Shown piece after piece: positions 2,597 to 51,800 of a stretch of DNA of 64,000 bases. The position numbers were made by a program, and so were the translations under genes. This DNA is from Candidatus Iainarchaeum sp. (GTDB lineage Archaea; Iainarchaeota; Iainarchaeia; Iainarchaeales; JACQJH01). The notes beneath the pieces were generated by a model. That model searched no databases, was not told the origin of the DNA, and saw only the letters and a list, made by a program, of their open reading frames with translations. Where the stretch lies: NCBI GenBank assembly GCA_016205145.1, contig JACQJH010000001.1, forward strand, positions 451,501 to 515,500, written 5' to 3'. The stretch's first letter is position 1; each line of letters begins with the position of its first letter.

Positions 2597-2606
2597 GCGT
2601 TGTGAC

Positions 2607-2801
2607 ATGAATAAAGTGAAACAAACCGCGTTGTTCACCTGCCCGGAATGCGGCGCAAAATCGGAAATAGCGGTTCCAACCGGCAGGTGCCTTGCCTTTC
2701 ACGAATGCGTGGCATGCCATAAAATCATCGCGGCAAAAAAATCCTGTTGCGTCATCTGCGACTACTCCGACAAGAAGTGCCCTGTTTCAGCAAAACACTG
2801 A
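2607..2801 (+). CDS. Small Cys-rich (about 10 Cys in 65 aa) zinc-ribbon-like metal-binding protein.
   Basis: The pattern is CPECG...CLAFHECVACH...CCVICDYSDKKCP. ATG is at 2607. The ORF-track TTG start at 2589 overlaps the upstream stop. Confidence 0.4.
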   Translation: MNKVKQTALFTCPECGAKSEIAVPTGRCLAFHECVACHKIIAAKKSCCVICDYSDKKCPVSAKH

Positions 2802-2864
2802 CTGGCCGCACTTTTGATTGTTTGGCTTTTTTTTGGCGCTCAGGGGCTGTTCCGCTTTTTCCAC

Positions 2865-2911
2865 ATGGTTTCAACAACGGTTATCTATGGTTTCAGCCGC
2901 ATTGTTTGCAT
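2865..2911 (+). promoter_or_regulatory. Conserved 47-nt promoter/operator motif, copy 1: GGTTTCA-n12-TATGGTTTCAGC-n7-TTTGCAT.
   Basis: It is nearly identical to 9181-9227. It contains a TATA-like TAT.TATGG and lies 42 nt upstream of the GGAGG-preceded ATG at 2953. Confidence 0.5.
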
Positions 2912-2952
2912 CAGAGCCTGATTCAGGCAATGTTTTTGCGGAGGAGACGGAA

Positions 2953-3630
2953 ATGCAGGGTTGTTGCGGGGAAGGGCACAAGTCCGGTTCCCATAAGTCT
3001 GGTTCGGCTGGCCAGCAAGCGGAATTCAAAACCAGTGCCGGCGGCAAAAAGCTGGGTTTTGGAAAAACCGCATTGACTGTGGTTTTGGCCTTGGCTGTTG
3101 TAGCAGGACTGCTGTTTTTCCTTCGCCCCGGCTCGACTGGACAGGTGTCCGCAACCGCGACGGGCAATACTGTCGGTGCTGTGGCGCCGGGTTTTGAGTT
3201 GAAGGACATTGCCGGAAACAGCGTGAAGCTGAGCGATTTCAAGGGCAGGGCTGTCATACTTTTTTTCAACGAGGGCGGAATGTGCTATCCTTCGTGCTGG
3301 AACCAGATAAAGGCTCTGGCAACGGATGAAAGGCTTAACAACGAAAACGTGGCGTCTTTCTCCGTGGTGGTTGACAACACTTCGGACTGGGAGAAAATCA
3401 CGGCTCACGTGCCCGGCTTTTCGCAGTCGGGCCTGCTCTTCGACACTTCAAAGGTTGTTTCGTCAAGTTACGGGGCGCTGAACATGCCGTCTTCGATGCA
3501 TGGCGGCATGATGCCGGGGCACACATATTATATCATCGGAAAGGACGGCAAAATAAAGTTCATTTTCGACGACCCGCAGATGGGCGTGAGGAACGACCTG
3601 CTTGCCGCTGAAATAGCAAAGCTGGTTTGA
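2953..3630 (+). CDS. Membrane-anchored thioredoxin-like (TlpA/redoxin family) protein with an N-terminal Cys/His-rich tail (MQGCCGEGHKSGSHKSGS).
   Basis: The active-site-like motif is GGMCYPSCW. There is a TM segment TALTVVLALAVVAGLLFF and a strong GGAGGAG RBS. The in-frame ATG at 2887 lies inside the conserved motif, so it was rejected as a start. Confidence 0.65.
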   Translation: MQGCCGEGHKSGSHKSGSAGQQAEFKTSAGGKKLGFGKTALTVVLALAVVAGLLFFLRPGSTGQVSATATGNTVGAVAPGFELKDIAGNSVKLSDFKGRAVILFFNEGGMCYPSCWNQIKALATDERLNNENVASFSVVVDNTSDWEKITAHVPGFSQSGLLFDTSKVVSSSYGALNMPSSMHGGMMPGHTYYIIGKDGKIKFIFDDPQMGVRNDLLAAEIAKLV

Positions 3631-3655
3631 CGGCTGGATTGTTTTTGGTGGTGGC

Positions 3656-4534
3656 GTGGGCGAACTGCTTTTAGGCGCGTCAATAATAACCGCTTTTGTG
3701 GCGGGAGTCGCGGCATTGTTCGCGCCGTGCTGCATTACCGTGCTCTTGCCCGCCTACCTCGGCTCGGTTTTCAGGCAGATGCGCACGGTTTTCCTCATGA
3801 CTTTCGTTTTCTTCCTGGGCCTGCTCGCGGTTTTCCTGCCGCTCGGCCTCGGCTTCGCGGCGCTCGGCGAAGCGTTCAGGCAGTTTCACGACGTCATTTT
3901 CGTCGGCGGAAGCGTTTTCCTCATAGTGCTTGGCGCCTCGATGCTTTTGGGAAAGCACTTTTCAATGCCATTTGCACCGCGCCCGTCTCCAAAAGTTACT
4001 GGTGCGGTTTCGGTTTTCGCGCTCGGCGTGTTCTCCGGCATAGCGACGCTTTGCTGTGCGCCCGTGCTTGCCGGAGTGCTGGCGCTTTCGATAATGCCGG
4101 GTTCGGTTTTCTGGGGCGGAGTCTACTCGCTGGCTTACGTGCTTGGCATGACGATTCCGTTGTTCGTAATTGCCTTCGCGCTTGACAAGTCGGATGCCCT
4201 TGAAAAAATCCGGCTGCTCAACAGGACCGTCGAATACGGCTTCGGCGGAGAAAAAATCAGCCTGCTTGCATCCGAAATGGTTGCAGCGTTGATGTTCATC
4301 GGAATGGGCTTGCTGACGATTTACTTTTTCATGACCGGGCAGCTTGCACAAAATTCCGGCTTCCAGGTTTCCACGAACGTGATGCTTGCAGGAGTGGCGG
4401 ATTTTGCCTCGAAGTATTTTTCGTGGGCACCGCCGGTTGCATTGGCGGGCGCGGTTGCGCTGATTTTGGCCGGCCTGGCGTTCATTGCCTTCAAAGAGAA
4501 GCATGGCCGGGGAAACGAAAAAAGGGAATCCTGA
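3656..4534 (+). CDS. ccdA: CcdA/DsbD-family transmembrane thiol-disulfide electron transporter.
   Basis: It has PCC and LCCAP motifs in TM helices (FAPCCITVLLPAYLG; IATLCCAPVLAG) and is polytopic. It has a GTG start. Confidence 0.8.
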   Translation: MGELLLGASIITAFVAGVAALFAPCCITVLLPAYLGSVFRQMRTVFLMTFVFFLGLLAVFLPLGLGFAALGEAFRQFHDVIFVGGSVFLIVLGASMLLGKHFSMPFAPRPSPKVTGAVSVFALGVFSGIATLCCAPVLAGVLALSIMPGSVFWGGVYSLAYVLGMTIPLFVIAFALDKSDALEKIRLLNRTVEYGFGGEKISLLASEMVAALMFIGMGLLTIYFFMTGQLAQNSGFQVSTNVMLAGVADFASKYFSWAPPVALAGAVALILAGLAFIAFKEKHGRGNEKRES

Positions 4535-4598
4535 TGGGAGGGATGAAAACGTGATTGCAAAAATAATCGAAAGCGCAAAGCGCAACCATCTCGCGCAG

Positions 4599-4760
4599 AT
4601 GGCAATCTGCTGCCTCTTGCCGGTGCTGCTGATAATCGCGTTGCAGCTTTTGGGTTACACGGGTTTCTGGGTTTATGCCCTGGCCCTCGCTTTGTGCATC
4701 GGCTCGCACATTGCAATGGCGGCTATTGGCGCGAAAAAAGAGGGGCAGTCATGCCATTAG
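4599..4760 (+). CDS. Small two-TM membrane protein with a CC pair (MAICCLLPVLL...).
   Basis: It is a short hydrophobic ORF in the island. The start is ambiguous between GTG 4551 and ATG 4599. Confidence 0.3.
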   Translation: MAICCLLPVLLIIALQLLGYTGFWVYALALALCIGSHIAMAAIGAKKEGQSCH

Positions 4761-4964
4761 ACTTAGGAAAGCACCGCGGCTGGCTGGAAAACGCCTTCTG
4801 GCTTCTCGTGCTCGCAGTCGCATACATTGCAATGCAAAAAGCAATGCATCCCGGCTGGACGGTTTTCGGAATCTGAATCCGCCGGGTGTATTTAGCCTGA
4901 TTTGGAAAAACTAATATAAATGCCGCTGCGCATCCATTAAAAACGCAGGAGGGCGGGATTAATC

Positions 4965-6689
4965 ATGGCGGGATTTGATGGCAGGACTGTCATTGGCTTG
5001 GCTTTGGTGGCCGTAATCGTGTTTGGGGCGGCGTTTTACATTGGCACATCCGGAAATTCCGGAATGCGTTCAGAGACGCGGCCGGCCGGAAGCGCGGCCG
5101 GGCAAACGGGCGCGGCATTCCCTTCCGGTGAATTGTCCGCCGGCGACAGGGCCATGATGGAGCACTGCAAGTCCATGCCGCAAATGCCGGGGTGCGAAAA
5201 ATTCGCCGGTCAGGAAGCCGCCGCAAATGGCGGTGCGGGTGCAAACGCCGGTTACTCTGATTCAGTTGCCGGGCTTTCCGCGGCAGGCGGAACCGCGGTT
5301 TATGATGCGAAAGACGGCGGAAAAATAACCCTGTCAGCGTCGGCCGTCAAAAAAACCGTTGCCGGCACGGAAGTCAGGATGCTTGCATACAACGGCCAGA
5401 TTCCGGGACCCACGATAAGAGTGAAACAGGGAAGCTCTCTGGAAGTGGAATTCATAAACGGCCTTGACTCCGAAACGACTGTGCACTGGCACGGCGTGAG
5501 AGTAAAAAACGATTTTGACGGCGTTCCGGGCGTGACGCAAAAGCCGGTCAAGCCCGGGGAAAAGTTTGTCTACCCGCTGGAGTTTCCGGACGAGGGCATA
5601 TACTGGTATCATCCGCACATGAGAGAGGACTACCAGCAGGAGCTCGGGCTTTACGGCAACATCATCGTCGAGCCGTCCGATGAAGGCTCTTACAACAAGG
5701 TCAACCGCGAAATGACGCTTGCGCTTGACGACATTCTGATGGAAGGCAATGGCATTGCCGCGTTCTCCGCCGATTTTGCGACGCATTCCCTGATGGGAAG
5801 GTTCGGGAACGTGATGCTGGTCAACGGCAGTGACAAATTTGAAATGGCCGCGCTGAAAGGCGAAACTGTGAGGTTTTTCGTCACGAATGCCGCGAACGCA
5901 AGGACATTCAACTTGGTTTTCGGGGGATTGAAGTTGAAGGTTGTCGGCGCGGACAGCGGAAAGTATGAAAAAGAATTTTTCGCGGACTCGGTTGTGGTGG
6001 CGCCGTCGGAAAGGTACGTTGTGGAAGTGCTGTTTGACGGGGAGGGAACATACAACATCCTCAATTCGACGCCTGAAGGAAAAACGGTTCTCGGCAAAAT
6101 AGCCGTGTCGGGCCGGCAGGCGGAAGAGGATTATTCCAAGGAGTTTTTTGAAACAATGGAAAATTCCCGGGTTGCTGACAGCATTTCCGGCATGAGGCGG
6201 TATTTTGACAAGCCCGCGGACCATGAAATAAGAATCGGCGTGGACCTGATGGGCATGAGTCATGGCAGCATGGCGATGGCTCAGGGAACCGGCGGCATCG
6301 AGTGGGAGGACGAAATGCCGCAAATGAACCTGGCCATGAACAGCAGGATAATGGAATGGCAGTTCATTGACGTGAAAACCGGGAAAAAGAACGAGGGCAT
6401 AAGCTATGAGTGGAAAAAAGGCGACAAAATCAAGTTGAGGATTTTCAACGACCCGGATTCCGCGCACCCCATGCAGCACCCGATCCATTTGCACGGCCAA
6501 AGGTTCCTGGCCATAAGCAGTGACGGGGTGGAAAGCGAAAACCTGGCGTGGAAGGACACGGTTCTGGTCCCGTCGGGTTCCACGGCGGACATTCTTGTGG
6601 ATGTCTCGAATCCCGGAAAATGGATGCTGCACTGCCATGTCCCGGAACACATGGAAAGCGGAATGCACACGACGGTAAACGTAATATGA
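4965..6689 (+). CDS. Multicopper oxidase (laccase/CueO-like), membrane-anchored or secreted.
   Basis: The copper-ligand motifs HWHG, HPIHLHG and HCHVPEHMESGMH are present. It has an N-terminal TM/signal and a GGAGGG RBS. Confidence 0.9.
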   Translation: MAGFDGRTVIGLALVAVIVFGAAFYIGTSGNSGMRSETRPAGSAAGQTGAAFPSGELSAGDRAMMEHCKSMPQMPGCEKFAGQEAAANGGAGANAGYSDSVAGLSAAGGTAVYDAKDGGKITLSASAVKKTVAGTEVRMLAYNGQIPGPTIRVKQGSSLEVEFINGLDSETTVHWHGVRVKNDFDGVPGVTQKPVKPGEKFVYPLEFPDEGIYWYHPHMREDYQQELGLYGNIIVEPSDEGSYNKVNREMTLALDDILMEGNGIAAFSADFATHSLMGRFGNVMLVNGSDKFEMAALKGETVRFFVTNAANARTFNLVFGGLKLKVVGADSGKYEKEFFADSVVVAPSERYVVEVLFDGEGTYNILNSTPEGKTVLGKIAVSGRQAEEDYSKEFFETMENSRVADSISGMRRYFDKPADHEIRIGVDLMGMSHGSMAMAQGTGGIEWEDEMPQMNLAMNSRIMEWQFIDVKTGKKNEGISYEWKKGDKIKLRIFNDPDSAHPMQHPIHLHGQRFLAISSDGVESENLAWKDTVLVPSGSTADILVDVSNPGKWMLHCHVPEHMESGMHTTVNVI

Positions 6690-6746
6690 GCGGCTGCCCG
6701 GAACCGGTTTTAATAACTGCGTTGCGGATTCATTCCGTGGCATAAA

Positions 6747-7217
6747 ATGCGAAAATGGTGGCAAGTGGACAAAAAAATAAAATTCCTGTTGGTTGGGGCG
6801 GGGCTTTCAATTCTGCTTTTCATAATCATGGGAACGCCCACGGCCCTCGTGCCCAACCCATTCATTCACTACAAGAGGATGGTTGCCGCGGCATGGTTGG
6901 ACTATTTTTTTCTCGCCTCAACCTCGATAATGCTTGCGGCATTGATTTCGCTGAAACTGTATTTCAGGTCGGGGCGCGGCCTCGGCGCAAAAGAAATCGG
7001 CGGGGGCGCGCTGGGCTTTCTTGCGTTCAGCTGCCCGATTTGCAATGCTCTTCTCGTGGCTTTGCTCGGCGGCGCGACGATAATGGCGTTCGTGGAGCCG
7101 TTGAGGCCGCTGTTTGGAGTCGTGTCGATTGCGATTTTGGGTTGGCTTATTTATGGCGCGCTGAAATGCGGGGGATGCAATGGCGCCGCAGGCCGGCACG
7201 GCATGAAAATTAATTAA
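6747..7217 (+). CDS. CxxC membrane protein, paralog 2 (FSCPICNALLVALLGG; C-terminal CGGCNG).
   Basis: Same architecture as 1466-2017. Confidence 0.45.
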   Translation: MRKWWQVDKKIKFLLVGAGLSILLFIIMGTPTALVPNPFIHYKRMVAAAWLDYFFLASTSIMLAALISLKLYFRSGRGLGAKEIGGGALGFLAFSCPICNALLVALLGGATIMAFVEPLRPLFGVVSIAILGWLIYGALKCGGCNGAAGRHGMKIN

Positions 7218-7247
7218 TCTGCTTGCATTTACATACAATCTGTTGCG

Positions 7248-7955
7248 GTGCTTGGAATGGCGTTTCCTTTGAACCCCTGGCTTTTCGGCTCGGCCGCCCT
7301 GCTGTTGTTGTGGCTGGCCATATGGCTTTTCAGGCCCGCTTTGCGCAGGGAAATGCTTTTGGTCAGCCTTTTCACCGCGCCTTTGGGTCTGACGGAACCG
7401 CTTTTTGTGCCCGAATACTGGACTCCGCCTTCGCTGTTCAACCTTGCCGCCACAACGGGCTTTGACATTGAAAGCATAGTCTTCTGCTTTGCCGCCGGGG
7501 GAATAGCGGCGGTCATCTACGAAATCCTGGTGAAATCGAGGCACAGTGAAATGTCCATGAATGAAATGCGTTCTAAACGGCACAGGTTCCACAAAATCGC
7601 GCTCGCCTCTCCCGCAATCGTTTTCGTGCCCCTGTACCTTTTTTCCGGCCTGAACCCGATATATGTTTCAATAATTGCGCTGTTTGCCGGCGCAATGGCG
7701 ACTGTCGTGTGCAGGCCGGATTTGAAGAAACCGGTCTTAACCGGAGGAACAGTATTTTTGCTCATCTATTTCTTTTTCTTCCTGTTTTTGAGCGTGGCAT
7801 TCCCGGATTTTGTGCCGAACGCGTGGAATTTTTCGGCCATCAGCGGCATTCTTGTTTTCGGCGTCCCTTTTGAGGAGCTGCTGTTCGCGCTTTCCTTTGG
7901 AATGGCGTGGGCGGGCCTTTACGAGCATTTTTTCTGGAAAAAACTGGTTCGTTAG
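7248..7955 (+). CDS. Polytopic membrane protein. It may be lycopene-cyclase-domain-like, based on PxEE-type motifs (GVPFEELLF).
   Basis: Seven or more hydrophobic helices and a PFEELLF motif. The family assignment is tentative. Confidence 0.35.
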   Translation: MLGMAFPLNPWLFGSAALLLLWLAIWLFRPALRREMLLVSLFTAPLGLTEPLFVPEYWTPPSLFNLAATTGFDIESIVFCFAAGGIAAVIYEILVKSRHSEMSMNEMRSKRHRFHKIALASPAIVFVPLYLFSGLNPIYVSIIALFAGAMATVVCRPDLKKPVLTGGTVFLLIYFFFFLFLSVAFPDFVPNAWNFSAISGILVFGVPFEELLFALSFGMAWAGLYEHFFWKKLVR

Positions 7956-7985: not shown

Positions 7986-8411
7986 TCAGTGCGCGCCGCC
8001 GCCCTTGAAAGTCCGCGCGCAGTGCCTGCAGCAGAATTTCAGGGTTTTTCCGTTTATTTTTTCCGTGTGGCCGCCTTCATAGACCATGCAGGCGCAGTGC
8101 GCGCACTGCGAAAGCTTCGGTTCCACGGCAAGGTCTATGAGGCCGCCGAACCTGTGCAGCATCGACTTGCAGAACGCCTTGCCTTCCGGCGTCAGAGCGT
8201 AAACCTTTTTTTCCCTCGCGCCCTCTGATTTGACCCGGATGTATTTTGCCTTTTCAAGTTTTGCGAGGAAAGGGTAGATCTGGCCGGGTGAAACCCTGCT
8301 TTCGAGCCTTTCGCTTATCTCCTTTATGAGCTCGTAGCCGTGCCTGGGGCCGTCGCACAGAAGAAGCATGCAATAGAATTTGGCCATGTTTGTGATCCTG
8401 ATTTCTTTCAT
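7986..8411 (-). CDS. PadR-family winged-helix regulator fused to a C-terminal TRASH metal-sensing domain. It is a candidate copper-responsive regulator.
   Basis: The N-terminus LCDGPRHGYELIKEI...GQIYPFLAKLE is a PadR signature. The C-terminus CAHC-x20-CCRHC fits the TRASH pattern C-x2-C-x19-22-C-x3-C. Confidence 0.7.
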   Translation of the reverse strand: MKEIRITNMAKFYCMLLLCDGPRHGYELIKEISERLESRVSPGQIYPFLAKLEKAKYIRVKSEGAREKKVYALTPEGKAFCKSMLHRFGGLIDLAVEPKLSQCAHCACMVYEGGHTEKINGKTLKFCCRHCARTFKGGGAH

Positions 8412-8453
8412 TGCGGTCAGGCGGATTTATCTGGGAAAACGTTTAAATATTTA

Positions 8454-8474
8454 TATATCTAAATTTGATATATC
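8454..8474. promoter_or_regulatory. Divergent promoter region with ATATATC-n7-GATATAT(C). It holds two copies of the self-complementary GATATATC-like element, between the PadR-TRASH gene and the Met-rich protein gene.
   Basis: Sequence TTATATATCTAAATTTGATATATC. These are TATA-like boxes for divergent transcription and/or an operator. Confidence 0.35.
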
Positions 8475-8542: not shown

Positions 8543-9130
8543 ATGGTGGAAAAATCGGGTTTGCTGGCATTGGTTGTATTGGCGGGTTTAATCGCGTTGC
8601 CTGTTGCAATGGCGCAGGGTTCGGATGATTTTGCGCAGGCGAAGGCGCTGATCGACAGGAATGCGTCCTGCGGCAGCCTGAGCAGCGAACAGCTTGAACT
8701 GATCGGCGATTATGTGATGGAGCAGATCCATCCCGGCGAAGCCCACGAATATGTGGAATCGATGATGGGCGGCGAGGGCTCGGATAGCCTGAAACGGGCG
8801 CACATTGCCATGGCTTACAGGTTCTACTGTGCAGGCTTAGGTTCTGGGTTGAACGCAAACAGCCCGTATTATGGCGTAATGGGCGGCTATGGGATGATGG
8901 GTGGCATGATGTACGGCAACTATGGCGGGATGATGGGTTCTGGCAATGCCTATTCCACTTATGGGCTTATGGGATACGGCGGCGGAACCGCAAATTATCC
9001 TGGAATGATGGGCTATAATGCGTCAACCGGCGGCCTTGGCCTGCTTACGCAGGTCTTGTTTGTGGTGGCGCTTGGTCTCGCAGTTCTGTTCCTTGGCATT
9101 AAAGTCTTCGGGCAATTTCAAAAGCGGTGA
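8543..9130 (+). CDS. Secreted Met/Gly/Tyr-rich protein with a signal peptide and a C-terminal TM anchor. It is a putative periplasmic copper-binding protein.
   Basis: Signal peptide LLALVVLAGLIALPVAMAQG. The central region is MGGYGMMGGMMYGNYGGMMGSGNAYSTYGLMGYGG. The C-terminal TM is LFVVALGLAVLFLGI. Confidence 0.55.
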   Translation: MVEKSGLLALVVLAGLIALPVAMAQGSDDFAQAKALIDRNASCGSLSSEQLELIGDYVMEQIHPGEAHEYVESMMGGEGSDSLKRAHIAMAYRFYCAGLGSGLNANSPYYGVMGGYGMMGGMMYGNYGGMMGSGNAYSTYGLMGYGGGTANYPGMMGYNASTGGLGLLTQVLFVVALGLAVLFLGIKVFGQFQKR

Positions 9131-9180: not shown

Positions 9181-9227
9181 AAAGGTTTCAGCAATGCCTA
9201 TTTATGGTTTCAGCAGGAATATTTGCA
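9181..9227 (+). promoter_or_regulatory. Conserved 47-nt promoter/operator motif, copy 2, upstream of the cupredoxin-copZ-copA operon.
   Basis: AAGGTTTCAGCAATGCCTATTTATGGTTTCAGCAGGAATATTTGCAT aligns with 2865-2911. Confidence 0.5.
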
Positions 9228-9296
9228 TAGTTGTGTTTTTTTGCATCCGGTCTTTTTTATGAATTTTATGGGTGAAGGCTCTAAAGTGGTGGTCAG

Positions 9297-9728
9297 ATGA
9301 ATGAGGTTAAAGTCCAGCGTGTTTTCCTGTTGCTTGTGTTAGGCGCCCTGGTCGTGTTCGGCGGAATGGTTCTGTTTTGGTTTGGCGCTAATGCAGCGCC
9401 CGCCAGATCGGCATCGGTAAATAATCAGGGTATTGTTGCCGGAGGGAACGGCCAGGCACAGGACATTTACATCAGGGCGCTTTCAAGCGGAACCTATGAC
9501 AAAAGCGAGGTCACGGTAAAGAAAGGCGTGCCGGTCAGACTGCATTTTTCCGCTGACCCTGGCGCGGGCTGCGGAAGGTATCTGGTGCTATACGGCCTGA
9601 ACGTCAATGCGCTTTCCAAGAACGGCGAAGAAGCGGTTGTCGACTTCACGCCGCAACAGGAAGGCAGCTTTGAATACAATTGCGGTATGAGAATGTTCAA
9701 ACCCGGAACATTGAAGGTTTTGGCATGA
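9297..9728 (+). CDS. Cupredoxin-like copper-binding domain protein with an N-terminal TM anchor.
   Basis: The beta-rich domain has Cu-ligand-like residues HFSADPGAGCGRY...YNCGMRMFKPG in a Cys...Cys-x-Met arrangement. Confidence 0.55.
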   Translation: MNEVKVQRVFLLLVLGALVVFGGMVLFWFGANAAPARSASVNNQGIVAGGNGQAQDIYIRALSSGTYDKSEVTVKKGVPVRLHFSADPGAGCGRYLVLYGLNVNALSKNGEEAVVDFTPQQEGSFEYNCGMRMFKPGTLKVLA

Positions 9729-10201
9729 GCAGGCTTGAAGCTTTGGCCTTGGTGTTGTCGGAGCGCAGTCAGCTCGCAATATTTCTTGCGGCGTTTGCCG
9801 TGCTTTTGCCTTTGCTGGCAGTCAGCTCGGCAATAATTTCGCCGGTGGGTTTTGCGTTCAATCCTTTGGCTGAACCGCTTGGAATCGCTTTGACAATCGT
9901 CATTGCAATCCTGATGGGCCTGAACCTGACGGTCCTGTTGCATGCCCACGCACGCAATGCAAATGCAAAAAAGGGGACTGTCCTGTTCGGCGGCCTGGCG
10001 GCAACGTTTGCCACTGCCTGCCCTGTTTGCCCGCCGACATGGATTGTCCTGCTCGGCTTCGGCTCGGCCGCGGGCTTTCTTTCTGGAACCGGGATTTTCA
10101 TTGCAATTGGCAGCATAGTCTTGCTTTCATTGGCTCTTTACAATTCTTTGGGTTGCGCAGACGGAAACTGCGGGGTGGACAAGAATGGAAAAAATGATTA
10201 A
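9725..10201 (+). CDS. CxxC membrane protein, paralog 3 (ATACPVCPPTW; C-terminal CADGNCG).
   Basis: Its ATG overlaps the upstream stop (ATGA). Same architecture as 1466 and 6747. Confidence 0.45.
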   Translation: MSRLEALALVLSERSQLAIFLAAFAVLLPLLAVSSAIISPVGFAFNPLAEPLGIALTIVIAILMGLNLTVLLHAHARNANAKKGTVLFGGLAATFATACPVCPPTWIVLLGFGSAAGFLSGTGIFIAIGSIVLLSLALYNSLGCADGNCGVDKNGKND

Positions 10202-10388
10202 AGTGAAAGGCATGCATTGTAAGTCATGCGAAATCCTTGTCGCGGACTCCGTGTCTGAAATCAGCGGCGTGGAAAGCGTCAAGGCGGACAGCAGGAAGGG
10301 AACTGTTGTGGTGAATGTCCGGGATGCCGGGATTCTCGGCAGGGTGAAAGCCGCGATTGAAAAGGAAGGCTACAAGGTGGAAAACTGA
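10185..10388 (+). CDS. copZ: Copper chaperone CopZ (single HMA domain).
   Basis: The GMHCKSCE motif is the MxCxxC of an HMA domain. The protein is 67 aa. Confidence 0.8.
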   Translation: MEKMIKVKGMHCKSCEILVADSVSEISGVESVKADSRKGTVVVNVRDAGILGRVKAAIEKEGYKVEN

Positions 10389-11308
10389 TGGAATTCGAAC
10401 TTGAACTTGGCGGAATGTCCTGCGGCTCATGCGAGCGCATAATCGAAAAGGTTGCCGAGAAAGCCGGCGCGGAAGTCAAGGAAATCGACTCGCGCAAAGG
10501 CAGGGTCACAATCGTTTCCGAGGAATCCAAAATAGCCGGAATAAGGGAAGAGCTTGCCAAGCGCGGCTTTGCCGAAAAGGGCAGCAGGGAAGACGTGGGC
10601 AGGGGCGACCTGAAAAACGTTGTTGGCTACATTTTGGCAGTGCTGTCAATCCAGCCGCACGTCGAAGAGGAAGCCAGGCTCGTCAACCACGCCATTGCGT
10701 CCGCGATTATTTTGGCTGGGCTGAACATTCTGGCTTACCTGTTTTTTGTGCAGGGCCTGGAGAACGGCGAAAAGTACCTTCCATTCCTTGCATTGGCGAT
10801 TGTTGCGTCAATAACATCCGTTTTCGCGTACCTTCACGCCAAATGCTACCGTAAAATCATGTCCTGCCAGAACGGCATGATGGTCGGAATGACCATGGGC
10901 ATGGTTCCGGGCTTCATGGTCGGCGCAATCATTGCCGCGACAAACGGAATGTTTCTTGGCAGCGTGGCCGGAATTCTGACCGGCGCATGGCTTGGCCTGA
11001 AGAGCGGAAAATGCTGCGGCGTAATGGGCGCAATGGAAGGAGTCATGGCCGGCCTGATGTCCGGTTTGATGGGGCCGATGACAGTGATCATGACCCTCAA
11101 CGACAACATGCTCGTTCTGCTTTACCTGATTTTCGGAATCTCTGTTTTTTTGCTCGGCGGCCTGAGCTACATGCTGTACCGCGAGGAAGGCGAAACCCCG
11201 GTTGCGAACACAAAGCTGCCGGAATTCATTGTTCTCGGCATTGCGTTCAATCTTGTGCTGCTGGCGATAATGCTTTTTGCGGTTAAGGGGCCATTGAGGT
11301 TCGTGTGA
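10388..11308 (+). CDS. Fusion of an N-terminal HMA domain to a polytopic Met-rich membrane domain. It is a candidate Cu(I) channel or permease.
   Basis: The N-terminus carries GMSCGSCE. The membrane part is [19 protein letters not shown]...[24 protein letters not shown]. Confidence 0.55.
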
Positions 11309-11318
11309 GGGCGATGGC

Positions 11319-13775
11319 ATGAAAAAAATCACAGTCGGCATTAAAGGCATGCATTGCGCTTCCTGCGCCACGATAATCGAGCGTCGCCTCAAAAAAGTTG
11401 AAGGCGTGAAGGATGTCTCTGTCAGCGTCGCGGCAAACAGGGCGGCGATCGAATTTGATGAGGGCATTGCGGGCATTGAACAGTTTGGAAAGGCAGTGGA
11501 AAGTGCAGGGTACGAACTCGTCCAGCCGCAGGGGCAGGATTCCGGCGATGCGAAGATAACAATGCATGTAAAGGGCATGGATTCGCCGCATTGTGCGGGC
11601 ATTGTCGGGAATGCGCTCAAGGGAACCGCTGGAGTGAAAAAATTCGACCTCAGCTTCCAGAATGCCTCGGCAATGGTTGAATTCGATGCCTCCATCACCG
11701 GCTTTGATAAAATAAAGGCTTCGATTGCAAGGGCAGGCTATGATGCGGAACTGCTTGTCGGGGAGGAAACAGTGGACCAGGAGAAGGCCGCACGCGATAA
11801 AGAAATCGCGGAATTGAAGCGCAGGCTCGTTTTTTCGGCATTGCTGACCGTGCCGGTTGTCCTGCTTGCATTGCCGGAAATGCTGAAAACTGTTATGGCA
11901 TTCGAGTACCCGCAGTTCATAATGCAGAACATGGCTGCATTGCAATTGCTGTTTTCAACGCCGGTGATGTACCTTAACAGGGACATGTTTGTGAGGGGCT
12001 TCAGGGGGCTGTTGAATAACATGCCGGGCATGGACAGCCTTGTCGCTTTGGGCGTCGGGACAACCTATGCTTACAGCGCAATCGTGGCCCTGCGCATCAT
12101 TGGCGGAGTCATGTATTTTGAAACCGCTGCTTTGCTTCTCACGTTCATATTGCTTGGCAGGTACCTTGAGGCGATTGCCAAAGGAAAGACTTCCGAGGCA
12201 ATCAAGCGCCTTGTAGGGCTTGCGCCGAAAACCGCAATCGTGGTCAGGGCAGGAAAAGAGGTTGAAATTCCGATCAAGGAAGTTGTTGTCGGGGACATTG
12301 TCATTGTGAAGCCGGGCAGCAAGATTCCGGTTGACGGCGTCATAGTCGAAGGCGAAAGCAGCATTGACGAGAGCATGATTACAGGGGAGAGCATGCCCGT
12401 GCACAAGCGAAAAAATGACATTGTGATCGGCGGGACAATCAACGGCAATGGCTCTTTCAGGTTCAGGGCGACAAAAATCGGCAAGGACACAATGCTTGCG
12501 CAGATAATCCGTTTGGTGGAGGACGCGCAGGCAAGCAAGGCGCCGATCCAGAAGCTTGCAGACACTGTCGCAGGCTATTTTGTGCACGCAGTAATAGTGC
12601 TTGCATTGCTTGCCTTCGCTTACTGGTATTTCGTGGCAGGCCAGCCGTTTCTTTTCGCGCTCACAATCCTTGTTTCAACGCTTGTGATTTCCTGTCCTTG
12701 CGCAATGGGCCTTGCAACCCCGACAGCGGTCATGATTGGAACCGGCAAGGGCGCCGAGAACGGCGTGCTCATAAAAAACGCGGAGAGCCTTGAAATCCTG
12801 CATCAGGCCAAAACCTTTGTGTTCGACAAGACCGGCACAATCACCATGGGAAAGGCGTCGGTAACGGAAATCGTTCCGGTCGGAATCAAGGCAGCCGACC
12901 TTCTTTGCCTTGCGGCTTCCGCGGAAAAGAATTCCGAGCATCATTTAGCGCAGGCAATCGTGAAAAAGGCGAAGGAATCGAGGCTGAAAATTGCAGAACC
13001 GAAATCTTTCAAGGCGATTCCGGGGCATGGCGTCGAGGCAAAAGTCGGGGCGAAGAATGTTCTCATCGGAACTGTTGTCCTGATGAAAAAAAGCGGGGTC
13101 CGGATCGGAAACGATTTGGTTGGCAGGATGCAGTCGCTTGAAGAGCAGGGAAAAAGCGTTGTCCTTGTTTCGTCGGACGGAAAGCTTGTGGGAATGGTTG
13201 CGATTGCCGACACCATAAAAGAGCATGCTGCCGAGGCTGTAAGGCAATTGCAGGCAATGGGTTATGAAACCGTCATGATAACCGGCGACAATTCCCGCAC
13301 TGCAAACGCGATTGCAAAGCAGGCAGGCATTTCAAGGGTGCTGGCGCAGGTGCTTCCGTCGGACAAGGCCGCGGAAGTCAAGAAATTGCAGTTGAACGGA
13401 AGAAAGGTTGCCTTTGTCGGCGACGGCATAAACGATGCCCCGGCCTTGGCGCAGGCCGACATTGGAATCGCGATTGGCAGCGGCACCGACGTTGCGATTG
13501 AAAGCGGCGGAATAGTTTTGGTGAAAAGCGATTTGCGCGACATTGTGACGGCGGTAAAGCTTAGCAAATACACTCTCGGCAAAATAAAGCAGAATCTGTT
13601 CTGGGCTTTCGGCTACAATGCGGTCGGCATTCCGCTCGCGGCAGGCGCATTCTATCCTTTCACCGGCTGGCTTTTGTCGCCGGTCATAGCCGGAGCGGCA
13701 ATGGCTTTCAGCTCGGTAAGCGTTGTTTCGAACAGCCTGCTCATGCGCGGATGGAAACCGGATAAAAAGGTTTGA
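11319..13775 (+). CDS. copA: Copper-translocating P1B-type ATPase CopA with two N-terminal HMA domains.
   Basis: It has GMHCASCA and GMDSPHCA motifs, an [14 protein letters not shown] motif, DKTGTIT, and GDGINDAP. Confidence 0.92.
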
Positions 13776-47039: not shown

Positions 47040-48335
47040 ATGGCCGAACCTGTCGATATGAACCATGCGTTTTCAAAGGCGCTTGAACTGATGGAAGGGA
47101 CGCGCAAAAACGTTTTCATTACGGGAAGGGCGGGCACGGGCAAATCGACCCTGCTGGGCCATTTCAAAAGCGTTTCAAAAAAACGGCTTGCTGTAATCGC
47201 CCCGACCGGTGTTGCGGCTGTCAACGTCGGCGGCCAGACAATCCACTCGTTTTTCGGCTTCAAGCCGAACATCACGGTCGGCAAGGTGAAGGTTTCAAAA
47301 AAGCGCAGGATATTCGAGGCCCTAGACGCAATCATCATCGACGAAATTTCGATGGTGCGTGCCGACATCCTGGACTGCATCGACCGTTTCCTGAGAGTCA
47401 ACCGCGGCAATCTTGGCGAGCCGTTCGGCGGCGTGCAGATGATTTTGTTCGGCGACCTCTATCAGCTTCCGCCGATTGTGTCTGGTGCTGAGCGCGCGCA
47501 CTTTTCGACTTTTTACCGAAGCCCATACTTTTTCGACTCGGATGCCTTTGAAGGCCTCGGGCTTGAAATAATCGAGCTTGACGAGGTTTACAGGCAGAAG
47601 GACAGGGAATTCGTAAGCTTGCTTGACGGGGTAAGGCATAACAGGATTTCCGACGAGCACCTGAAGCGCCTGAATGCACGGGTCATGCCGTCCTTTGAGC
47701 CGAAAGAAAACGAATTTTACGTGCGCCTGTGCACGCTGAACAGCATGGCGGATGAAATCAACGCGGCGGAACTCGAAAAAATCAAAGCCTATGAATACCG
47801 CTTCCGCGCGGCATCGGAAGGCGATTTCGGAAACGAGTACATGCCATGCGAACAGGAACTCAAACTCAAACTGGGCGCGCAGGTGATGTTTTTGAACAAC
47901 GATTCGGAAAAGCGCTGGGTGAACGGCTCGATGGGAAAAGTCATAGGCTTCCGCAGGGAAAATGAAAACTATGCAATCCAGGTCGAACTGCCCACAAAGG
48001 AAAAGGTTGCCGTAAACCCGCACACCTGGGAACTGTTCAGGCCGAAACTCGACCCGCTCCGGAACGCGCTCGCATATGAAACGATCGGCTCTTTCACGCA
48101 GTATCCTTTGCGCCTGGCCTGGGCCATCACAATCCACAAAAGCCAGGGAAAAACGTTCGAAAAGGCGATAATCGATTTCGGCCATGGAACATTTGCGCCG
48201 GGACAGGCTTACGTCGCCTTGAGCCGGTGCACGACGCTTGAAGGCATGGTCCTCAAAAGGCCGCTTGAAAAAAGGCACGTGATGGTCGACAAAAAAATCG
48301 CGGACTTCATGGAAAAAGCGAAAAAGCCGGGATGA
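47040..48335 (+). CDS. Pif1/RecD-family 5'-3' DNA helicase.
   Basis: Walker A GRAGTGKST and DEISMV. The C-terminus AITIHKSQGKTF...AYVALSRC is the Pif1/UvrD_C_2 signature. Confidence 0.8.
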   Translation: MAEPVDMNHAFSKALELMEGTRKNVFITGRAGTGKSTLLGHFKSVSKKRLAVIAPTGVAAVNVGGQTIHSFFGFKPNITVGKVKVSKKRRIFEALDAIIIDEISMVRADILDCIDRFLRVNRGNLGEPFGGVQMILFGDLYQLPPIVSGAERAHFSTFYRSPYFFDSDAFEGLGLEIIELDEVYRQKDREFVSLLDGVRHNRISDEHLKRLNARVMPSFEPKENEFYVRLCTLNSMADEINAAELEKIKAYEYRFRAASEGDFGNEYMPCEQELKLKLGAQVMFLNNDSEKRWVNGSMGKVIGFRRENENYAIQVELPTKEKVAVNPHTWELFRPKLDPLRNALAYETIGSFTQYPLRLAWAITIHKSQGKTFEKAIIDFGHGTFAPGQAYVALSRCTTLEGMVLKRPLEKRHVMVDKKIADFMEKAKKPG

Positions 48336-48439
48336 TGGCTAGAACCTAGGGCGCCCAAAGAAATGACTGGTCAAGTGGATAATTGTATGGGTAGATAATT
48401 AATAACATTCATTCAATAAATTAAATTATTTTTTGAAGT

Positions 48440-49150
48440 TTGCGTGTCTGGGTGATTAATATAGGAAACCCAATAAATTTTGTCAAAACAAGTTTTAACA
48501 AAATAATAATCAGCACAAAAATTCAAAAAATCAATTATGTGCAACGAATTCTCCTGCTCGTAGTGTCTTGGACGCTTATTGGCTCGATTATAGGAATAAA
48601 TCTAGTAAAATTTAATCTCATTGAAGTTTCAAATTCGTCAATTATTGGTTTGTGTATTTTTAATTGTAATAATATTCAAAATGTCCAAGACAACAAAATA
48701 ACCGAAGAACAAAGGCAAATTGAATATAATAAACATCTGAGGCTTGTGGATTCAACTATTGCAGAGCTAAAAAACAATAGGGGTATTGCTAATCAGTATT
48801 TTGATGATAACAAATCGTATCTAGTTTATCACTACCTATTTTCAAAACGATTTAAAACGACCCAGCTTGAAACGCTAATAAACTCTTCAGATTTTAGAAA
48901 CAATAGCATTATGGGACTTCTAGGTATAGTTGAAACAAACACCAAAAGTGCAAATAAATATCTTGACAATTTAGAACAAATGTTAAAACAAATTGAAACT
49001 GAAGGGCAGTATGATCAATATGGTAAATATGAAGAAACATTTCAAAATATTTTTGAAAAAATTATTAAACCGCTGAACCAAGCGCAAGAAACATTAATTC
49101 AGTTATTAACAAAATACAAGGTTTCTGTGGGCATTAATTCTTTTCCGTGA
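48440..49150 (+). CDS. Orphan ORF within an approximately 0.85 kb AT-rich islet. It is a membrane-anchored, Asn/Ile/Lys-rich protein, and its start is uncertain.
   Basis: The island has strikingly low GC relative to its flanks. There is one TM segment and no recognised motif. Confidence 0.3.
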   Translation: MRVWVINIGNPINFVKTSFNKIIISTKIQKINYVQRILLLVVSWTLIGSIIGINLVKFNLIEVSNSSIIGLCIFNCNNIQNVQDNKITEEQRQIEYNKHLRLVDSTIAELKNNRGIANQYFDDNKSYLVYHYLFSKRFKTTQLETLINSSDFRNNSIMGLLGIVETNTKSANKYLDNLEQMLKQIETEGQYDQYGKYEETFQNIFEKIIKPLNQAQETLIQLLTKYKVSVGINSFP

Positions 49151-49198
49151 GCAAATAAAATTTTGTGTGGCGGTTATTGAATCTTGGTCCTTTTGTTA

Positions 49199-51031
49199 TT
49201 ATTCCCACTCGATCGTCGCGGGCGGCTTGTGCGTTATGTCGACGTACACTCCGCTGATCTTTGTCTTCGGCACTTTTTCCAAAAGCTTTTTCACGAACTT
49301 TTCGGGCAGGGGGAAAAATTTTGCGGTCATTGCCTCGCGGCTCTGCACCGGCCTCAAGACAATCGATTCGCGGCGCCTGCAGTCCGTTCCAACTGGAATC
49401 AAAACTGTCGGGAACTGCCATATTTCATTCATCAGGCCCTGCTTTTCGACCAGCTTCATCACAATCTCATCCATTTCCTGCAGCAATTCAATCCTTTTAG
49501 CGTTCAAATCCTTTGCGAACAGGTTGATGCTTTCCGCCTTTTCCCGGTTAACGCAATAGACAACCCTGTTGACTTCCGGCACTTCGTTTGTGATGCGCGT
49601 TGAAACGAATTCAAGGGCCTTCCAGCCGCTTTTGCCGAACAATGCCATGACATGCTTGTACGAGCGCGAATCGCCCTGGACGCCGACGCTTTTCAATGGC
49701 AAAACCTTTGGCCGCAAACCGGATTCGGCGCAGATTCCGGAAGCCTTTTTTTCGATTGCGGCAATCTCCTTTGCGCTGGAATCACTTTTGCCATTTGAGC
49801 ACAATGCCCTGATTGCAAGTCCCGGCCCGGGAAACGGGTGCCTCAAAACCATTTCATTGGGCAAACCGATGCTTTCGCCCAGCGCCCTGACTTCATCCTT
49901 GTACAACTGCTTCAACGGCTCTATGACAATGCCTTTCGCAATCATTTCCTCTATGACCGGAACGCGGTTGTGGTGCGTCTTGATTTTAGAGGCAAACTTT
50001 GTTCCGGCAGTCTCAATCGTGTCAGGATAAATAGTTCCCTGGCACAAAACCCACTGCTCATGGTTCAATCCGAGCTTTTCAATTTCCGCCTGCATTATTT
50101 CAACAAACAGGTTGCCTATGATTTTTCGCTTTTCCTCCGGGTCGAAAACGCCCTTAAGCGCCGCGAAAAACCTTTTCGACGCGTCAACGGTTGTAACATC
50201 GCACAATCCGAGCTTTTTGAACGCCTTTTTCACGCTTTTCGATTCATTCCTGCGCATGAAGCCCGTGTCAACGTGCAAGGCAAAAACCCTGTCACGCGGC
50301 AGGGCCTTACTCACCAAAGCCAATGCAACAGTGCTGTCGACTCCGCCGGAAACAAGGCTGAAAACCTTCCTGTCGCCGACAGCCCTGACAATCTCGATTA
50401 TCTCCCTTGAAAGATAATTTTCCATTGTCCAGTTTGCATCGCAGCCGCACACGTCAAAAACAAAATTCTTGAGAATCTGCATGCCGTTCTCAGTATGCGT
50501 GACTTCAGGATGAAACTGCAAACCGAAAAATTTCCTGCCTGCATCAGCAACCGCCGCGGCTTCACAGTCGTCGGTGCTGCCAATCACTTCAAACCCTTCC
50601 GGCAGTTTCTCGACAGTGTCGCCGTGCGACATCCACACCTTTTCATTGCCCTGCAACAAGTGGAACAGCCCTTCGGATTTTTTGACGTGCAGGAAAGCCG
50701 AGCCGTACTCCTTTGTCTTTCCGGCAGAAACCGTTCCGCCAAGCGCCTGTGCCATTAATTGGTGGCCATAACAAATGCCCAGCACCGGCTTGCCCAGTCC
50801 GAGAATCTTCCTGTTGAACGGCGGAGCATTCCTGTCGTAAACCGAGTTCGGCCCGCCGGACAAAATTATCCCGCAGCAGTTTTCAAGCTCTTTTTCGGAA
50901 ACAGTCGGCTCCTTTATCTCCGAAAAAACGTTCATTTCGCGGACGCGCCTTGCAATCAGATGCGCGTACTGCGCGCCGAAGTCGATTACAACTATGCCCT
51001 TCTGTTCCTGCATAAACTCAGATAACATCAA
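49199..51031 (-). CDS. guaA: GMP synthase (glutamine-hydrolysing).
   Basis: GATase GICYGHQ, PP-loop SGGVDSTV, and C-terminal IEWE. Confidence 0.92.
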   Translation of the reverse strand: MMLSEFMQEQKGIVVIDFGAQYAHLIARRVREMNVFSEIKEPTVSEKELENCCGIILSGGPNSVYDRNAPPFNRKILGLGKPVLGICYGHQLMAQALGGTVSAGKTKEYGSAFLHVKKSEGLFHLLQGNEKVWMSHGDTVEKLPEGFEVIGSTDDCEAAAVADAGRKFFGLQFHPEVTHTENGMQILKNFVFDVCGCDANWTMENYLSREIIEIVRAVGDRKVFSLVSGGVDSTVALALVSKALPRDRVFALHVDTGFMRRNESKSVKKAFKKLGLCDVTTVDASKRFFAALKGVFDPEEKRKIIGNLFVEIMQAEIEKLGLNHEQWVLCQGTIYPDTIETAGTKFASKIKTHHNRVPVIEEMIAKGIVIEPLKQLYKDEVRALGESIGLPNEMVLRHPFPGPGLAIRALCSNGKSDSSAKEIAAIEKKASGICAESGLRPKVLPLKSVGVQGDSRSYKHVMALFGKSGWKALEFVSTRITNEVPEVNRVVYCVNREKAESINLFAKDLNAKRIELLQEMDEIVMKLVEKQGLMNEIWQFPTVLIPVGTDCRRRESIVLRPVQSREAMTAKFFPLPEKFVKKLLEKVPKTKISGVYVDITHKPPATIEWE

Positions 51032-51189
51032 AAACCTTTAAACACGAACACAACACCAAAAACCGCACGAACGCCTTGAATGCAAAAGAGAAAAAGAGTG
51101 TTTCCCGAAACCGCGGAAATTATGTCCAATCCCAAAACATATTTAAAAAGTTGCAGGCAAAAACCTTGAAAGTGTTGGGAGTTGAAGGG

Positions 51190-51365
51190 GCGAGTCATAC
51201 CGCTTGCGGTTCCCTGGCTTGCCCTCTCATTTTTATCCTGAGCCGCTTTCGTCCGGCTCGCCGTCTCGTCCGGCGGGTACGTTTTGTGGTGTTCGCGCCG
51301 TTGCGGAACACCACGCATGCTTTGCGGGGTTTGCAAGGGGTGCAACCCCTGCGTTTTATCCGGCT
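51190..51365 (+). ncRNA. Candidate structured ncRNA of unknown identity, made of multiple GC-rich hairpins. The strand is uncertain.
   Basis: Nested inverted repeats (GAGCCG..CGGCTC, GTGGTGTTC..GAACACCAC, GGGG-TGCAA-CCCC). No ORF. It is directly followed by a copy of the tRNA-trailer module. Confidence 0.2.
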
Positions 51366-51411
51366 GGTTCGAAACCAAGGCGGCCTGCTGTTGCAAGCCG
51401 CCGAGTGAGTC
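51366..51411 (+). repeat. tRNA-trailer-like module copy B (GGTTCGAAACCAAGGCG + hairpin + CGCCGAGTGAGT), not preceded by a recognisable tRNA.
   Basis: Core GAAACCAAGGCG and CGCCGAGT, with a distinct stem sequence. Confidence 0.4.
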
Positions 51412-51531
51412 AGTACTCCTGACCCTCCCCCGAAATTCCTGATTTTTTCCCACAAAAACCATTAAAAAACTCCCTGACCAAGAATAGTTCAAGGCACCGG
51501 AATCAAAGTGCCAAAAAGCCACCATCAAATT

Positions 51532-51735
51532 GCGGGGGTGGCGGAGCGGTCTAACGCGCCAGCCTTGAGAAACCTTTTTCTTTCTTGAGAAGAAAGAAAA
51601 AGCTTCAATGCAAAATCAAAGATTTTGCATGCATCAAAAATTTGATTTTTGATGTACCAAAAAGAAAGAACCGTTCTTTGTTTCAGGCAAGCTGGTATCC
51701 GAAAGGATGCGCGAGTTCGAATCTCGTCCCCCGCG
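51532..51735 (+). tRNA. tRNA-Ser (anticodon UGA), class II, with an approximately 120-nt intron in the anticodon loop.
   Basis: Exons give a GCGGGGG/CCCCCGC acceptor, a 3-bp D-stem with an 11-nt loop, anticodon stem CCAGC/GCTGG, loop CUUGAG|A, a long variable arm, TTCGAAT, and G73. The intron is 51570-51689. Confidence 0.75.
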
Positions 51736-51736
51736 A

Positions 51737-51800
51737 GCACGCAGTTTCGGCTGCGTGGAGCGAAACTAAGGCGGTTCACACTGTGAACCGCCGAGTAAGC
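51737..51800 (+). repeat. tRNA-trailer module copy C.
   Basis: Hairpin CACGCAG-TTTCGG-CTGCGTG, then GAGCGAAACTAAGGCG, a hairpin, and CGCCGAGTAAGC. Confidence 0.5.

Follow-up and report, generated by a model that had tools for sequence, protein, structure and literature searches.

What controls the two halves of the copper island found in a 64,000-nucleotide stretch of Candidatus Iainarchaeum sp. (contig JACQJH010000001.1, positions 451,501 to 515,500; hereafter "the window", with all coordinates given as window positions)? Two operons of this island, one for TlpA, CcdA and a multicopper oxidase (MCO) and the other for a cupredoxin, CopZ and CopA, are each preceded by a copy of a nearly identical 47-nt motif. 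A sequence-only reading of the locus had interpreted this motif as a promoter/operator shared by both operons, and had singled out the PadR-TRASH protein encoded between them as the regulator to be tried. Our analysis points to a different protein. The reading that we favor, to which we give a probability of about 0.65, is that each copy is an archaeal core promoter bracketed by two ATGGTTTCA boxes, and that both operons respond in trans to a membrane regulator of the DUF7343 family. Judged from sequence comparison, the cis-element itself is solidly established, while for its regulator a strong comparative case can be made.

Both copies of the motif are indeed present. Copy 1 (ATGGTTTCAACAACGGTTATCTATGGTTTCAGCCGCATTGTTTGCAT) lies at 2865-2911, where it had been placed; copy 2 (AAGGTTTCAGCAATGCCTATTTATGGTTTCAGCAGGAATATTTGCAT) lies at 9182-9228 and not at 9181-9227 as previously given. 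The two cores are identical at 37 of 47 positions, and similarity falls to chance level in the flanks (8/30 identical nucleotides upstream, 13/40 downstream). Two half-sites per copy had been described, and two are found. Their spacing is, however, 22 nt from start to start rather than about 21, and box 1 of copy 1 reads GGTTTCAAC, so that the common unit is (A)TGGTTTCA and not GGTTTCAGC. All four boxes fit the module with 0 mismatches, as direct (A)TGGTTTCA repeats 22 bp apart. A degenerate 45-nt pattern, GGTTTCAnCAnnnnnTATnTATGGTTTCAGCnnnAnTnTTTGCAT, was built from the positions common to both copies. Even when up to 3 mismatches were allowed, the pattern matched the window at 2867-2911 and 9184-9228 only, both times on the + strand, and none of 100 dinucleotide-preserving shuffles gave a match.

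The two copies, both on the + strand, have the same internal layout. In copy 1, box 1 (GGTTTCA preceded by AT) occupies 2867-2873; just downstream, at 2876-2877, is an AA dinucleotide that resembles the transcription factor B (TFB) recognition element (BRE). A TATA-like box, TTATCTAT, follows at 2881-2888, then box 2 (GGTTTCA followed by GC) at 2889-2897, and finally the heptamer TTTGCAT at 2905-2911, a predicted initiator region. In copy 2, box 1 is found at 9184-9190, the BRE-like AA at 9193-9194, the TATA-like box CTATTTAT at 9198-9205, box 2 with its GC at 9206-9214 and TTTGCAT, again the predicted initiator region, at 9222-9228. Box 2 abuts the TATA box in both.

An intron-containing transfer RNA (tRNA) and the relatives of the PadR-TRASH protein indicate that the window is archaeal. 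The tRNA was recognized by Rfam as a match spanning 184 nt at 52641-52824. Close PadR-TRASH homologues are all archaeal (Diapherotrites/Iainarchaeota, Aenigmatarchaeota, Micrarchaeota, Bathyarchaeia and others), and the best named ones come from 'Candidatus Iainarchaeum' metagenome-assembled genomes and from the AR10 genome. As a side observation, ARAGORN did not call the tRNA at 52641-52824; it called a tRNA-Leu 120 nt further on (52944-53026).

In an archaeal host, the element previously described as TATA-like becomes a true TATA box, and TTTGCAT is most likely the initiator region. The element does lie between the boxes, as had been noticed, and is re-read here as an 8-bp archaeal TATA box preceded by a BRE-like AA at a distance of 4-5 nt: both copies have an A/T-rich octamer and a conserved AA just before it. 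Because the distance from the TATA box to the transcription start site (TSS) is ~26 nt, and because relatives show a weak T..CAG signal (+40 to +44), transcription is predicted to start inside TTTGCAT, at its CA, ~26 nt downstream of the TATA center. The predicted TSS would thus be near A2910 in copy 1 and near A9227 in copy 2. On this predicted map the BRE-like AA would fall at about −35/−34, the TATA box at −30 to −23 and the second GGTTTCA at −22 to −16; in copy 1, box 1 would extend from about −44 to −38, and box 2 together with its GC from about −22 to −14. The predicted leader is ~43 nt long in operon 1 (ATG at 2953, with a GGAGG Shine-Dalgarno sequence at 2940-2944) and ~70 nt long in operon 2 (ATG at 9297, preceded by a GGTGGT Shine-Dalgarno sequence). 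Bacterial readings of GG...TTTGCAT as a sigma-54, a Bacteroidetes-type or an extracytoplasmic function (ECF) promoter were rejected by inspection, as the sigma-54 spacing is wrong and the host is archaeal; for the latter reason, a sigma-70 promoter with a MerR-type spacer is not applicable either.

Conservation of the module was examined in two collections of loci, identified below by L numbers. The first comprises 80 loci fetched through PadR-TRASH homologues, one genome per species, and the motif was not used in their retrieval (no stretch of a 27-sequence PadR-TRASH alignment was conserved enough to serve as a query, and the 11 closest sequences were used instead). GGTTTCA-N15-GGTTTCA with TATATAT before box 2 was detected in L001, L002, L005, L006, L008, L013 and L023, always in sense orientation and ahead of operons for cop or thiol-redox genes. 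A variant copy in the complete AR10 genome (L002, 9213 on the − strand) is syntenic with window copy 2, and sits between the gene for a Gly/Tyr/Met-rich protein and a cupredoxin-CopZ-HMA-CopA operon. An orthologue of copy 1 in a different organism (L146) shares with it 35 contiguous identical nucleotides, GGTTTCAACAACGGTTATCTATGGTTTCAGCCGCA, within intergenic DNA that is ~55-65% identical; such a pattern reads as a clear phylogenetic footprint. Locus L176, otherwise too close to the window to be informative, is conserved up to the TTTGCA of copy 2 and begins to diverge right after.

The second collection was obtained motif-first, by scanning a metagenome collection with GGTTTCANNARNNNNNNNNTATGGTTTCA, and holds 91 stretches with 84 distinct instances. 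Position statistics were made on 82 non-redundant instances, in which only the positions not fixed by GGTTTCANNARNNNNNNNNTATGGTTTCA are informative. The two positions before box 1, unconstrained by the search, are A in 62/82 and T in 52/82 instances, and the repeated unit is therefore ATGGTTTCA. Unconstrained positions of the TATA box read aTATa/gTAT. Position 10, which the search limited to A or G, is A in 76/82. GC also shows up behind box 2, and A/T richness where the −10 region is expected. A third GTTTCA box is found another 22 nt upstream in about ten instances (L081, L097, L139, L145, L151, L154, L156, L159, L160 and L162); the window copies carry two boxes only. Box 1 can also be part of a palindrome, either GGTTTCATGAAACC or TGAAACC-AT-GGTTTCA; box 1 of L092 has an inverted partner of this kind. 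The half-site appears, then, to be used in several arrangements. To look for operator variants in distant lineages, the loci were also scanned with a looser description, namely an 8-mer of any sequence that recurs after 21-23 nt and has A/T-rich DNA in front of its second occurrence; AT-rich genomes matched too often for this to be of use, and the scan was abandoned.

Altogether, the module precedes genes in ~90 related genome or metagenome loci, in sense orientation and with the TATA box in register. In the motif-first loci, the downstream genes encode HMA chaperones or CopA ATPases (~20), a 237-aa Cys-rich membrane-anchored family (~12) and DsbA-like thioredoxins (~10), and also a thioredoxin-DsbD fusion, small secreted Cys-rich peptides and a DUF411-like protein. 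These copper and envelope thiol-redox genes appear to make up a coherent regulon. The motif cannot be called a generic promoter element: the 64 kb contain two occurrences, each of them within the copper island, and the ~90 loci that carry it lead into few downstream families. The earlier proposal of a shared promoter/operator architecture, pointing to a common regulator of copper-related operons, thus gains support from relatives; the copper response itself we infer.

Which protein might read the boxes? When the 2,316 open reading frames (ORFs) of the motif-first loci were clustered, one family of ~170-aa proteins stood out, present in 52 of these loci, and no other DNA-binding family was enriched among the ORFs. 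Sixty-six distinct instances are informative in this respect, as they have at least 650 nt of upstream sequence. In 45 of them, a gene of the family is divergent from the module and starts 22-150 nt from box 1; among the remaining 21, several resemble chance matches, on contigs that are not archaeal, and the others are satellite copies. The divergent arrangement is also found in L001, L002, L005, L013 and L023.

Proteins of this family begin with a hydrophobic helix, after which come a short loop that carries the conserved motif C-x4-7-C-x-H-E, another hydrophobic helix extending into a charged linker, and a winged helix. The C-terminal domain matches Pfam DUF7343, with weaker similarity to MarR, TrmB and HTH_24, and the sequence KVKSHR is invariant in the predicted recognition helix. 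An AlphaFold model shows a helix at residues 3-34, a loop at 35-44, a second helix at 45-95 and a canonical winged helix at 99-165. Foldseek comparison with the PDB gave MarR, ArsR and CodY-type DNA-binding domains as best matches. Database names for the family are 'hypothetical protein' or 'uncharacterized membrane protein' throughout. A full-text literature search returned no paper mentioning DUF7343, and no description of such a membrane regulator was found in the literature on DPANN or archaeal copper.

Individual loci add to this picture. L013 carries two paralogous DUF7343 regulators (5727-6293 and 10642-11181). One is found beside canonical GGTTTCA boxes (11201, + strand), and the more divergent one beside three TGTTTCA boxes 21-22 nt apart (5752-5773, − strand), upstream of cupredoxin-CopZ; the pairing may reflect co-variation of regulator and operator. 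On one 1.19-Mb contig, a regulator-linked site (L112) coexists with two satellite sites that have no regulator (L126). In L009 (10001-10872), L020 (1244-2199) and L135 (~2600-3533) the DUF7343 gene comes directly after the PadR-TRASH gene on the same strand, and both may be co-transcribed. Hence, the two regulators belong to the same islands, and this layout suggests that they form one functional unit in some lineages. As for the GGTTTCA boxes, the data suggest the DUF7343 membrane protein as the candidate that binds them, and not PadR-TRASH.

Several points weigh against this assignment. One concerns the window itself: no DUF7343 gene was detected in its 64 kb, either by tblastn with 53 family members or by an unfiltered hidden Markov model search of six-frame ORFs, and none is present in the 9.4 kb upstream (L172), ~73 kb in all. 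The upstream segment holds housekeeping genes only (Lon, SMC, ribosomal protein L44e and M42 peptidase). Neither window copy has a divergent DUF7343 gene 22-150 nt from box 1, and for the window organism the regulator is only presumed. Another point is that L020 has the regulator gene and no canonical motif within 11 kb. The AlphaFold model is of moderate confidence only (mean predicted local distance difference test, pLDDT, 75; predicted template modeling score, pTM, 0.48). Geometry raises a further difficulty: the usual targets of winged-helix dimers are inverted repeats separated by about one helical turn, and direct repeats 22 bp apart would need two units or an unusual geometry. That box 1 is sometimes palindromic (GGTTTCATGAAACC) complicates the stoichiometry. 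Lastly, a box upstream of BRE is in a typical activator position.

If the model is right, the window copies would be satellite sites served in trans, as the gene is absent both from the window and from the 9.4 kb upstream. They do resemble the satellite sites of L126, L082 and L146. In the GC-rich relatives L113 and L173, the regulator is found beside GGTTTCAAGAACGGCTATATATGGTTTCAGCCGCA, which is almost the same as window copy 1. In AR10, the DUF7343 gene sits between a 188-aa gene and the module; the same position in the window is occupied by a small Cys-rich ORF. This ORF (2589-2801, ~64 aa, with a range of 64-70 aa) lies immediately upstream of copy 1, and has several CxxC-like pairs and a weak DUF7129 match. 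It was considered as an alternative regulator and rejected, as its homologues are found in L146 and L009 only and so do not track the motif.

Motif and regulator are linked by association, and this link admits another explanation: the boxes might be bound by some other factor, either a soluble regulator encoded elsewhere or a specialized variant of TFB or of the TATA-binding protein (TBP), and the DUF7343 gene could be a mere regulon member or neighbor. This alternative would accommodate a window that has the motif with no DUF7343 gene within 73 kb, as well as the gene without a nearby motif in L020, and association is indeed not binding. We consider it unlikely. Regulators classically lie divergent from their operators, as does the gene that starts 22-150 nt from box 1 in 45/66 instances; a genuine winged-helix DNA-binding domain, whose recognition helix is invariant, forms the C-terminus of the protein; the paralogues of L013 adjoin different box variants; and the 2,316 ORFs offer no other enriched DNA-binding family. 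As for a TFB variant, recognition of BRE would leave the identical box downstream of the TATA box unexplained.

The regulator proposed by the sequence-only reading fares worse. PadR-TRASH (7986-8411, − strand) would bind both GGTTTCA boxes and release them when its TRASH cysteines bind copper. Its gene sits between the two operons, its PadR winged helix is joined with a metal-binding TRASH domain, and it shares islands with the GGTTTCA motif in the window and in L001, L002, L005, L006, L008, L013 and L023. PadR-TRASH genes track, however, a different element, which we call motif B: the palindrome GATATATC-N7-GATATATC, preceded by a TATA box (TTTAAA). In the window, the motif B region spans 8442-8474, with the TATA box TTTAAATA at 8442-8449 and the palindrome, in the form TATATATC-N7-GATATATC, at 8452-8474. 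This is the only motif B of the window; it is 63 nt away from the PadR-TRASH start codon and lies between the divergent genes for PadR-TRASH and for a Gly/Tyr/Met-rich secreted protein.

With up to 2 mismatches, 41 of the 80 loci have motif B at most 200 nt ahead of PadR-TRASH. Its offsets are stereotyped, mostly 31-38 or 57-75 nt and occasionally up to 165 nt, and the loci belong to Iainarchaeota, Micrarchaeota, Bathyarchaeia, Hadarchaeota, Aenigmatarchaeota and Woesearchaeota. Elsewhere, there are 5 matches in 1.17 Mb, two of them directly upstream of copA (L006 and L008). Because it is dyad-symmetric, is located in the regulator's own divergent promoter and is conserved as far as the protein is, motif B is likely the PadR-TRASH operator. 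The operators of Bacillus subtilis PadR and of LmrR are likewise dyad-symmetric sites in the divergent promoter of their own regulator.

The GGTTTCA motif differs from PadR-family operators on each of these counts: its boxes are direct repeats and lack the dyad symmetry of a PadR-type operator, it is off the PadR promoter, and it does not follow PadR-TRASH across the phylogeny. It is found in ~8/80 PadR-TRASH loci, restricted to an Iainarchaeota-like subset, and never in the PadR promoter, which in the window has no GGTTTCA box either; most PadR-TRASH loci have no GGTTTCA motif at all. Among the motif-first loci, the PadR-TRASH cluster has 5 members including the window gene, hence at most 4 of ~90 loci, in contrast with the 52 loci that have the DUF7343 cluster. 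Motif B and the GGTTTCA motif show no sequence similarity. Binding of the GGTTTCA boxes by PadR-TRASH is thus not supported, and we regard it as highly improbable.

A non-regulatory origin of the similarity, whether left over from the duplication of a segment, due to a small mobile or repeat element or reflecting a motif of transcribed RNA, has a negligible probability: two ~47-nt copies in one island could in principle stem from duplication, but identity ends exactly at the module borders, the module is kept in ~90 loci of many organisms (in sense, upstream of genes and with the TATA box in register), the footprint in L146 is perfect within diverged DNA, inverted termini and target duplications are lacking, Rfam has no match at the motif, and the predicted TSS lies downstream of both boxes.

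Returning to the DUF7343 protein as the factor that would bind the boxes, a mechanism can be proposed. Two direct ATGGTTTCA operator boxes 22 bp apart, which is two helical turns, would bracket BRE and TATA box in both promoters. These promoters would drive the two halves of a copper and envelope thiol-redox island and, for this reason, both would respond to one trans-acting factor. The factor would be a ~170-aa one-component membrane sensor-regulator made of a first transmembrane (TM) helix, an outward C-x4-7-C-x-H-E loop, a second TM helix, a long linker helix and the DUF7343 winged helix, and in this organism it would be encoded outside the 64-kb window. Flanking BRE/TATA, its units would share a single face of the DNA; they might form two dimers, one flexible dimer or a higher oligomer. 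Once bound, they would block the assembly of TBP, TFB and RNA polymerase, and the block would be lifted when the outward Cys/His loop senses copper or a thiol oxidation driven by copper. PadR-TRASH would run a second, cytoplasmic circuit through the palindrome at 8452-8474.

The sign of regulation deserves separate consideration. Archaeal factors that bind just downstream of the TATA box block recruitment of RNA polymerase, while those that bind just upstream of BRE can compete with TFB or recruit it. Repression by occlusion, relieved by copper or thiol-oxidation sensing, has in our view about an even chance of being correct; copper-dependent activation is appreciably less probable. A wider proposal is that an as yet undescribed membrane sensor-regulator of DPANN (Iainarchaeota-like) archaea reads extracytoplasmic copper or thiol-oxidation stress, binds direct ATGGTTTCA repeats around the TATA box and tethers its promoters to the membrane, thereby forming a two-compartment copper-sensing network together with the PadR-TRASH/GATATATC circuit. 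This proposal is tentative, and we place it slightly short of even odds.

The gene context of the two promoters is as the sequence-only reading had described it. Operon 1 (2953-7955, + strand), with copy 1 as its putative promoter, encodes an AhpC/TSA-type TlpA (2953-3630), a DsbD_TM/CcdA protein (3656-4534) and the MCO (4965-6689), and also contains small ORFs and genes for a 156-aa membrane protein and a lycopene-cyclase-domain protein. Operon 2 (9297-13775, + strand), with copy 2 as its putative promoter, encodes the cupredoxin (9297-9728), a 158-aa membrane protein, the HMA protein CopZ (10185-10388), a 306-aa HMA protein (10388-11308) and the P-type ATPase CopA (11319-13775).

Additional observations were made on the island. 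In L176, an ENA contig whose PadR-TRASH is 94% identical to that of the window, the genes for MCO, the 156-aa protein and the lycopene-cyclase-domain protein are absent from the interval between ccdA and PadR-TRASH; the block at ~4965-7955 is variable between near-identical islands. The 306-aa protein of operon 2 has a weak HMA domain at its N-terminus only, and its ~240 other residues have no family match. It is kept between copZ and copA in L002 and L013, and HMA proteins of 290-375 aa are the first gene product after the GGTTTCA module in L006, L008, L105, L123, L124 and L160. The Gly/Tyr/Met-rich product of 8543-9130 is a secreted or membrane-anchored protein with a low-complexity region (GGMMYGNYGGMMGSGNAY...) and no Pfam match. 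Homologues are encoded at the same position in L002, L003 and L004, its promoter is covered by motif B, and it might bind Cu(I) as a Met-rich protein of the envelope. TTTGCAT occurs once more, at 9240-9246, in the predicted leader of operon 2, which also has runs of seven (T7, 9236-9242) and six T (T6, 9253-9258). Oligo-T runs are archaeal termination signals, and attenuation in this leader is conceivable; the region 9236-9258 diverges in the close relative L176. Away from the island, G+C content falls from ~0.52 to 0.35-0.46 over positions 48000-64000 of the window; this part is possibly a foreign island or otherwise differs in origin.

Gene regulation in the uncultured DPANN archaea is, to our knowledge, almost unexplored. 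Our analysis provides a defined cis-element with ~80 natural variants, a coherent copper and envelope-thiol regulon and a specific candidate family for its regulator. Two regulatory circuits are told apart within one copper island, and PadR-TRASH, itself uncharacterized, gains a likely operator that is conserved across several archaeal phyla. If the model is true, the DUF7343 system would represent a new archaeal way by which metal or redox signals from outside the cytoplasm reach a BRE/TATA promoter, and the window would show the trans-acting, multi-operon form of the regulon.

How does this system compare with known ones? The cop box of bacterial CopY, TACAnnTGTA, has no match in the window, and the promoters are not of the bacterial CopY/CueR/CsoR type. 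Among archaea, the reference is CopR of Pyrococcus furiosus, Thermococcus onnurineus and Sulfolobus, a protein with an Lrp-type helix-turn-helix and a TRASH domain whose cop-motif, the semi-palindrome TTNNCAWWWTGNNAA, lies directly upstream of BRE (PMC7830388). CopR is a soluble, octameric member of the Lrp family that senses copper through its cytoplasmic TRASH domain, and in P. furiosus it contacts both sides of BRE/TATA and switches allosterically (PMC7830388). The proposed GGTTTCA system is like it in several respects: both concern an archaeal copper regulon, with an operator upstream of BRE in copA-type promoters plus contacts downstream of the TATA box, and in both a regulator gene is divergent from its target and several operons come under one motif. 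In contrast with CopR, the system described here has its TATA box flanked by direct ATGGTTTCA repeats, and its candidate regulator is a DUF7343 protein with two TM helices and an outward Cys/His loop. The cop-motif TTNNCAWWWTGNNAA has no match in the 64-kb window, and the TRASH protein of the window has a PadR winged helix and not an Lrp domain. Hence, the GGTTTCA system resembles the CopR regulon in logic and is not a member of it; more generally, it would act in the manner of metal-responsive archaeal operators overlapping BRE/TATA.

A similar mixture of likeness and difference is found when the comparison is extended to other archaeal regulators. MDR1, LrpA, Phr, TrmBL1 and SurR are repressors or dual regulators, and the position of their operators relative to BRE and TATA box decides the outcome. 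They are soluble and mostly bind palindromes, such as GTTn3AAC in the case of SurR and TATCAC-N5-GTGATA in the case of TrmBL1. The GGTTTCA system shares with them an operator site at or beside BRE/TATA, and departs from them in that an identical 9-mer is repeated directly with a 22-bp period, sometimes three times.

Membrane-anchored regulators offer the remaining term of comparison. None of the membrane-anchored one-component regulators known to us is connected with the copper islands of DPANN archaea. In bacterial ToxR and CadC, an OmpR-type winged helix at the N-terminus is followed by a single TM helix and a periplasmic sensor; ArnR and ArnR1 of Sulfolobus are also membrane-anchored, and ArnR has an N-terminal helix-turn-helix and C-terminal TM helices. 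As in ToxR, CadC and ArnR/ArnR1, the DNA-binding domain of the candidate would be tethered to the membrane, so that an extracytoplasmic or membrane signal could act directly on promoters. Unlike ToxR, CadC and ArnR, the candidate would present the order first TM helix, short Cys/His loop, second TM helix and C-terminal MarR/ArsR-like winged helix.

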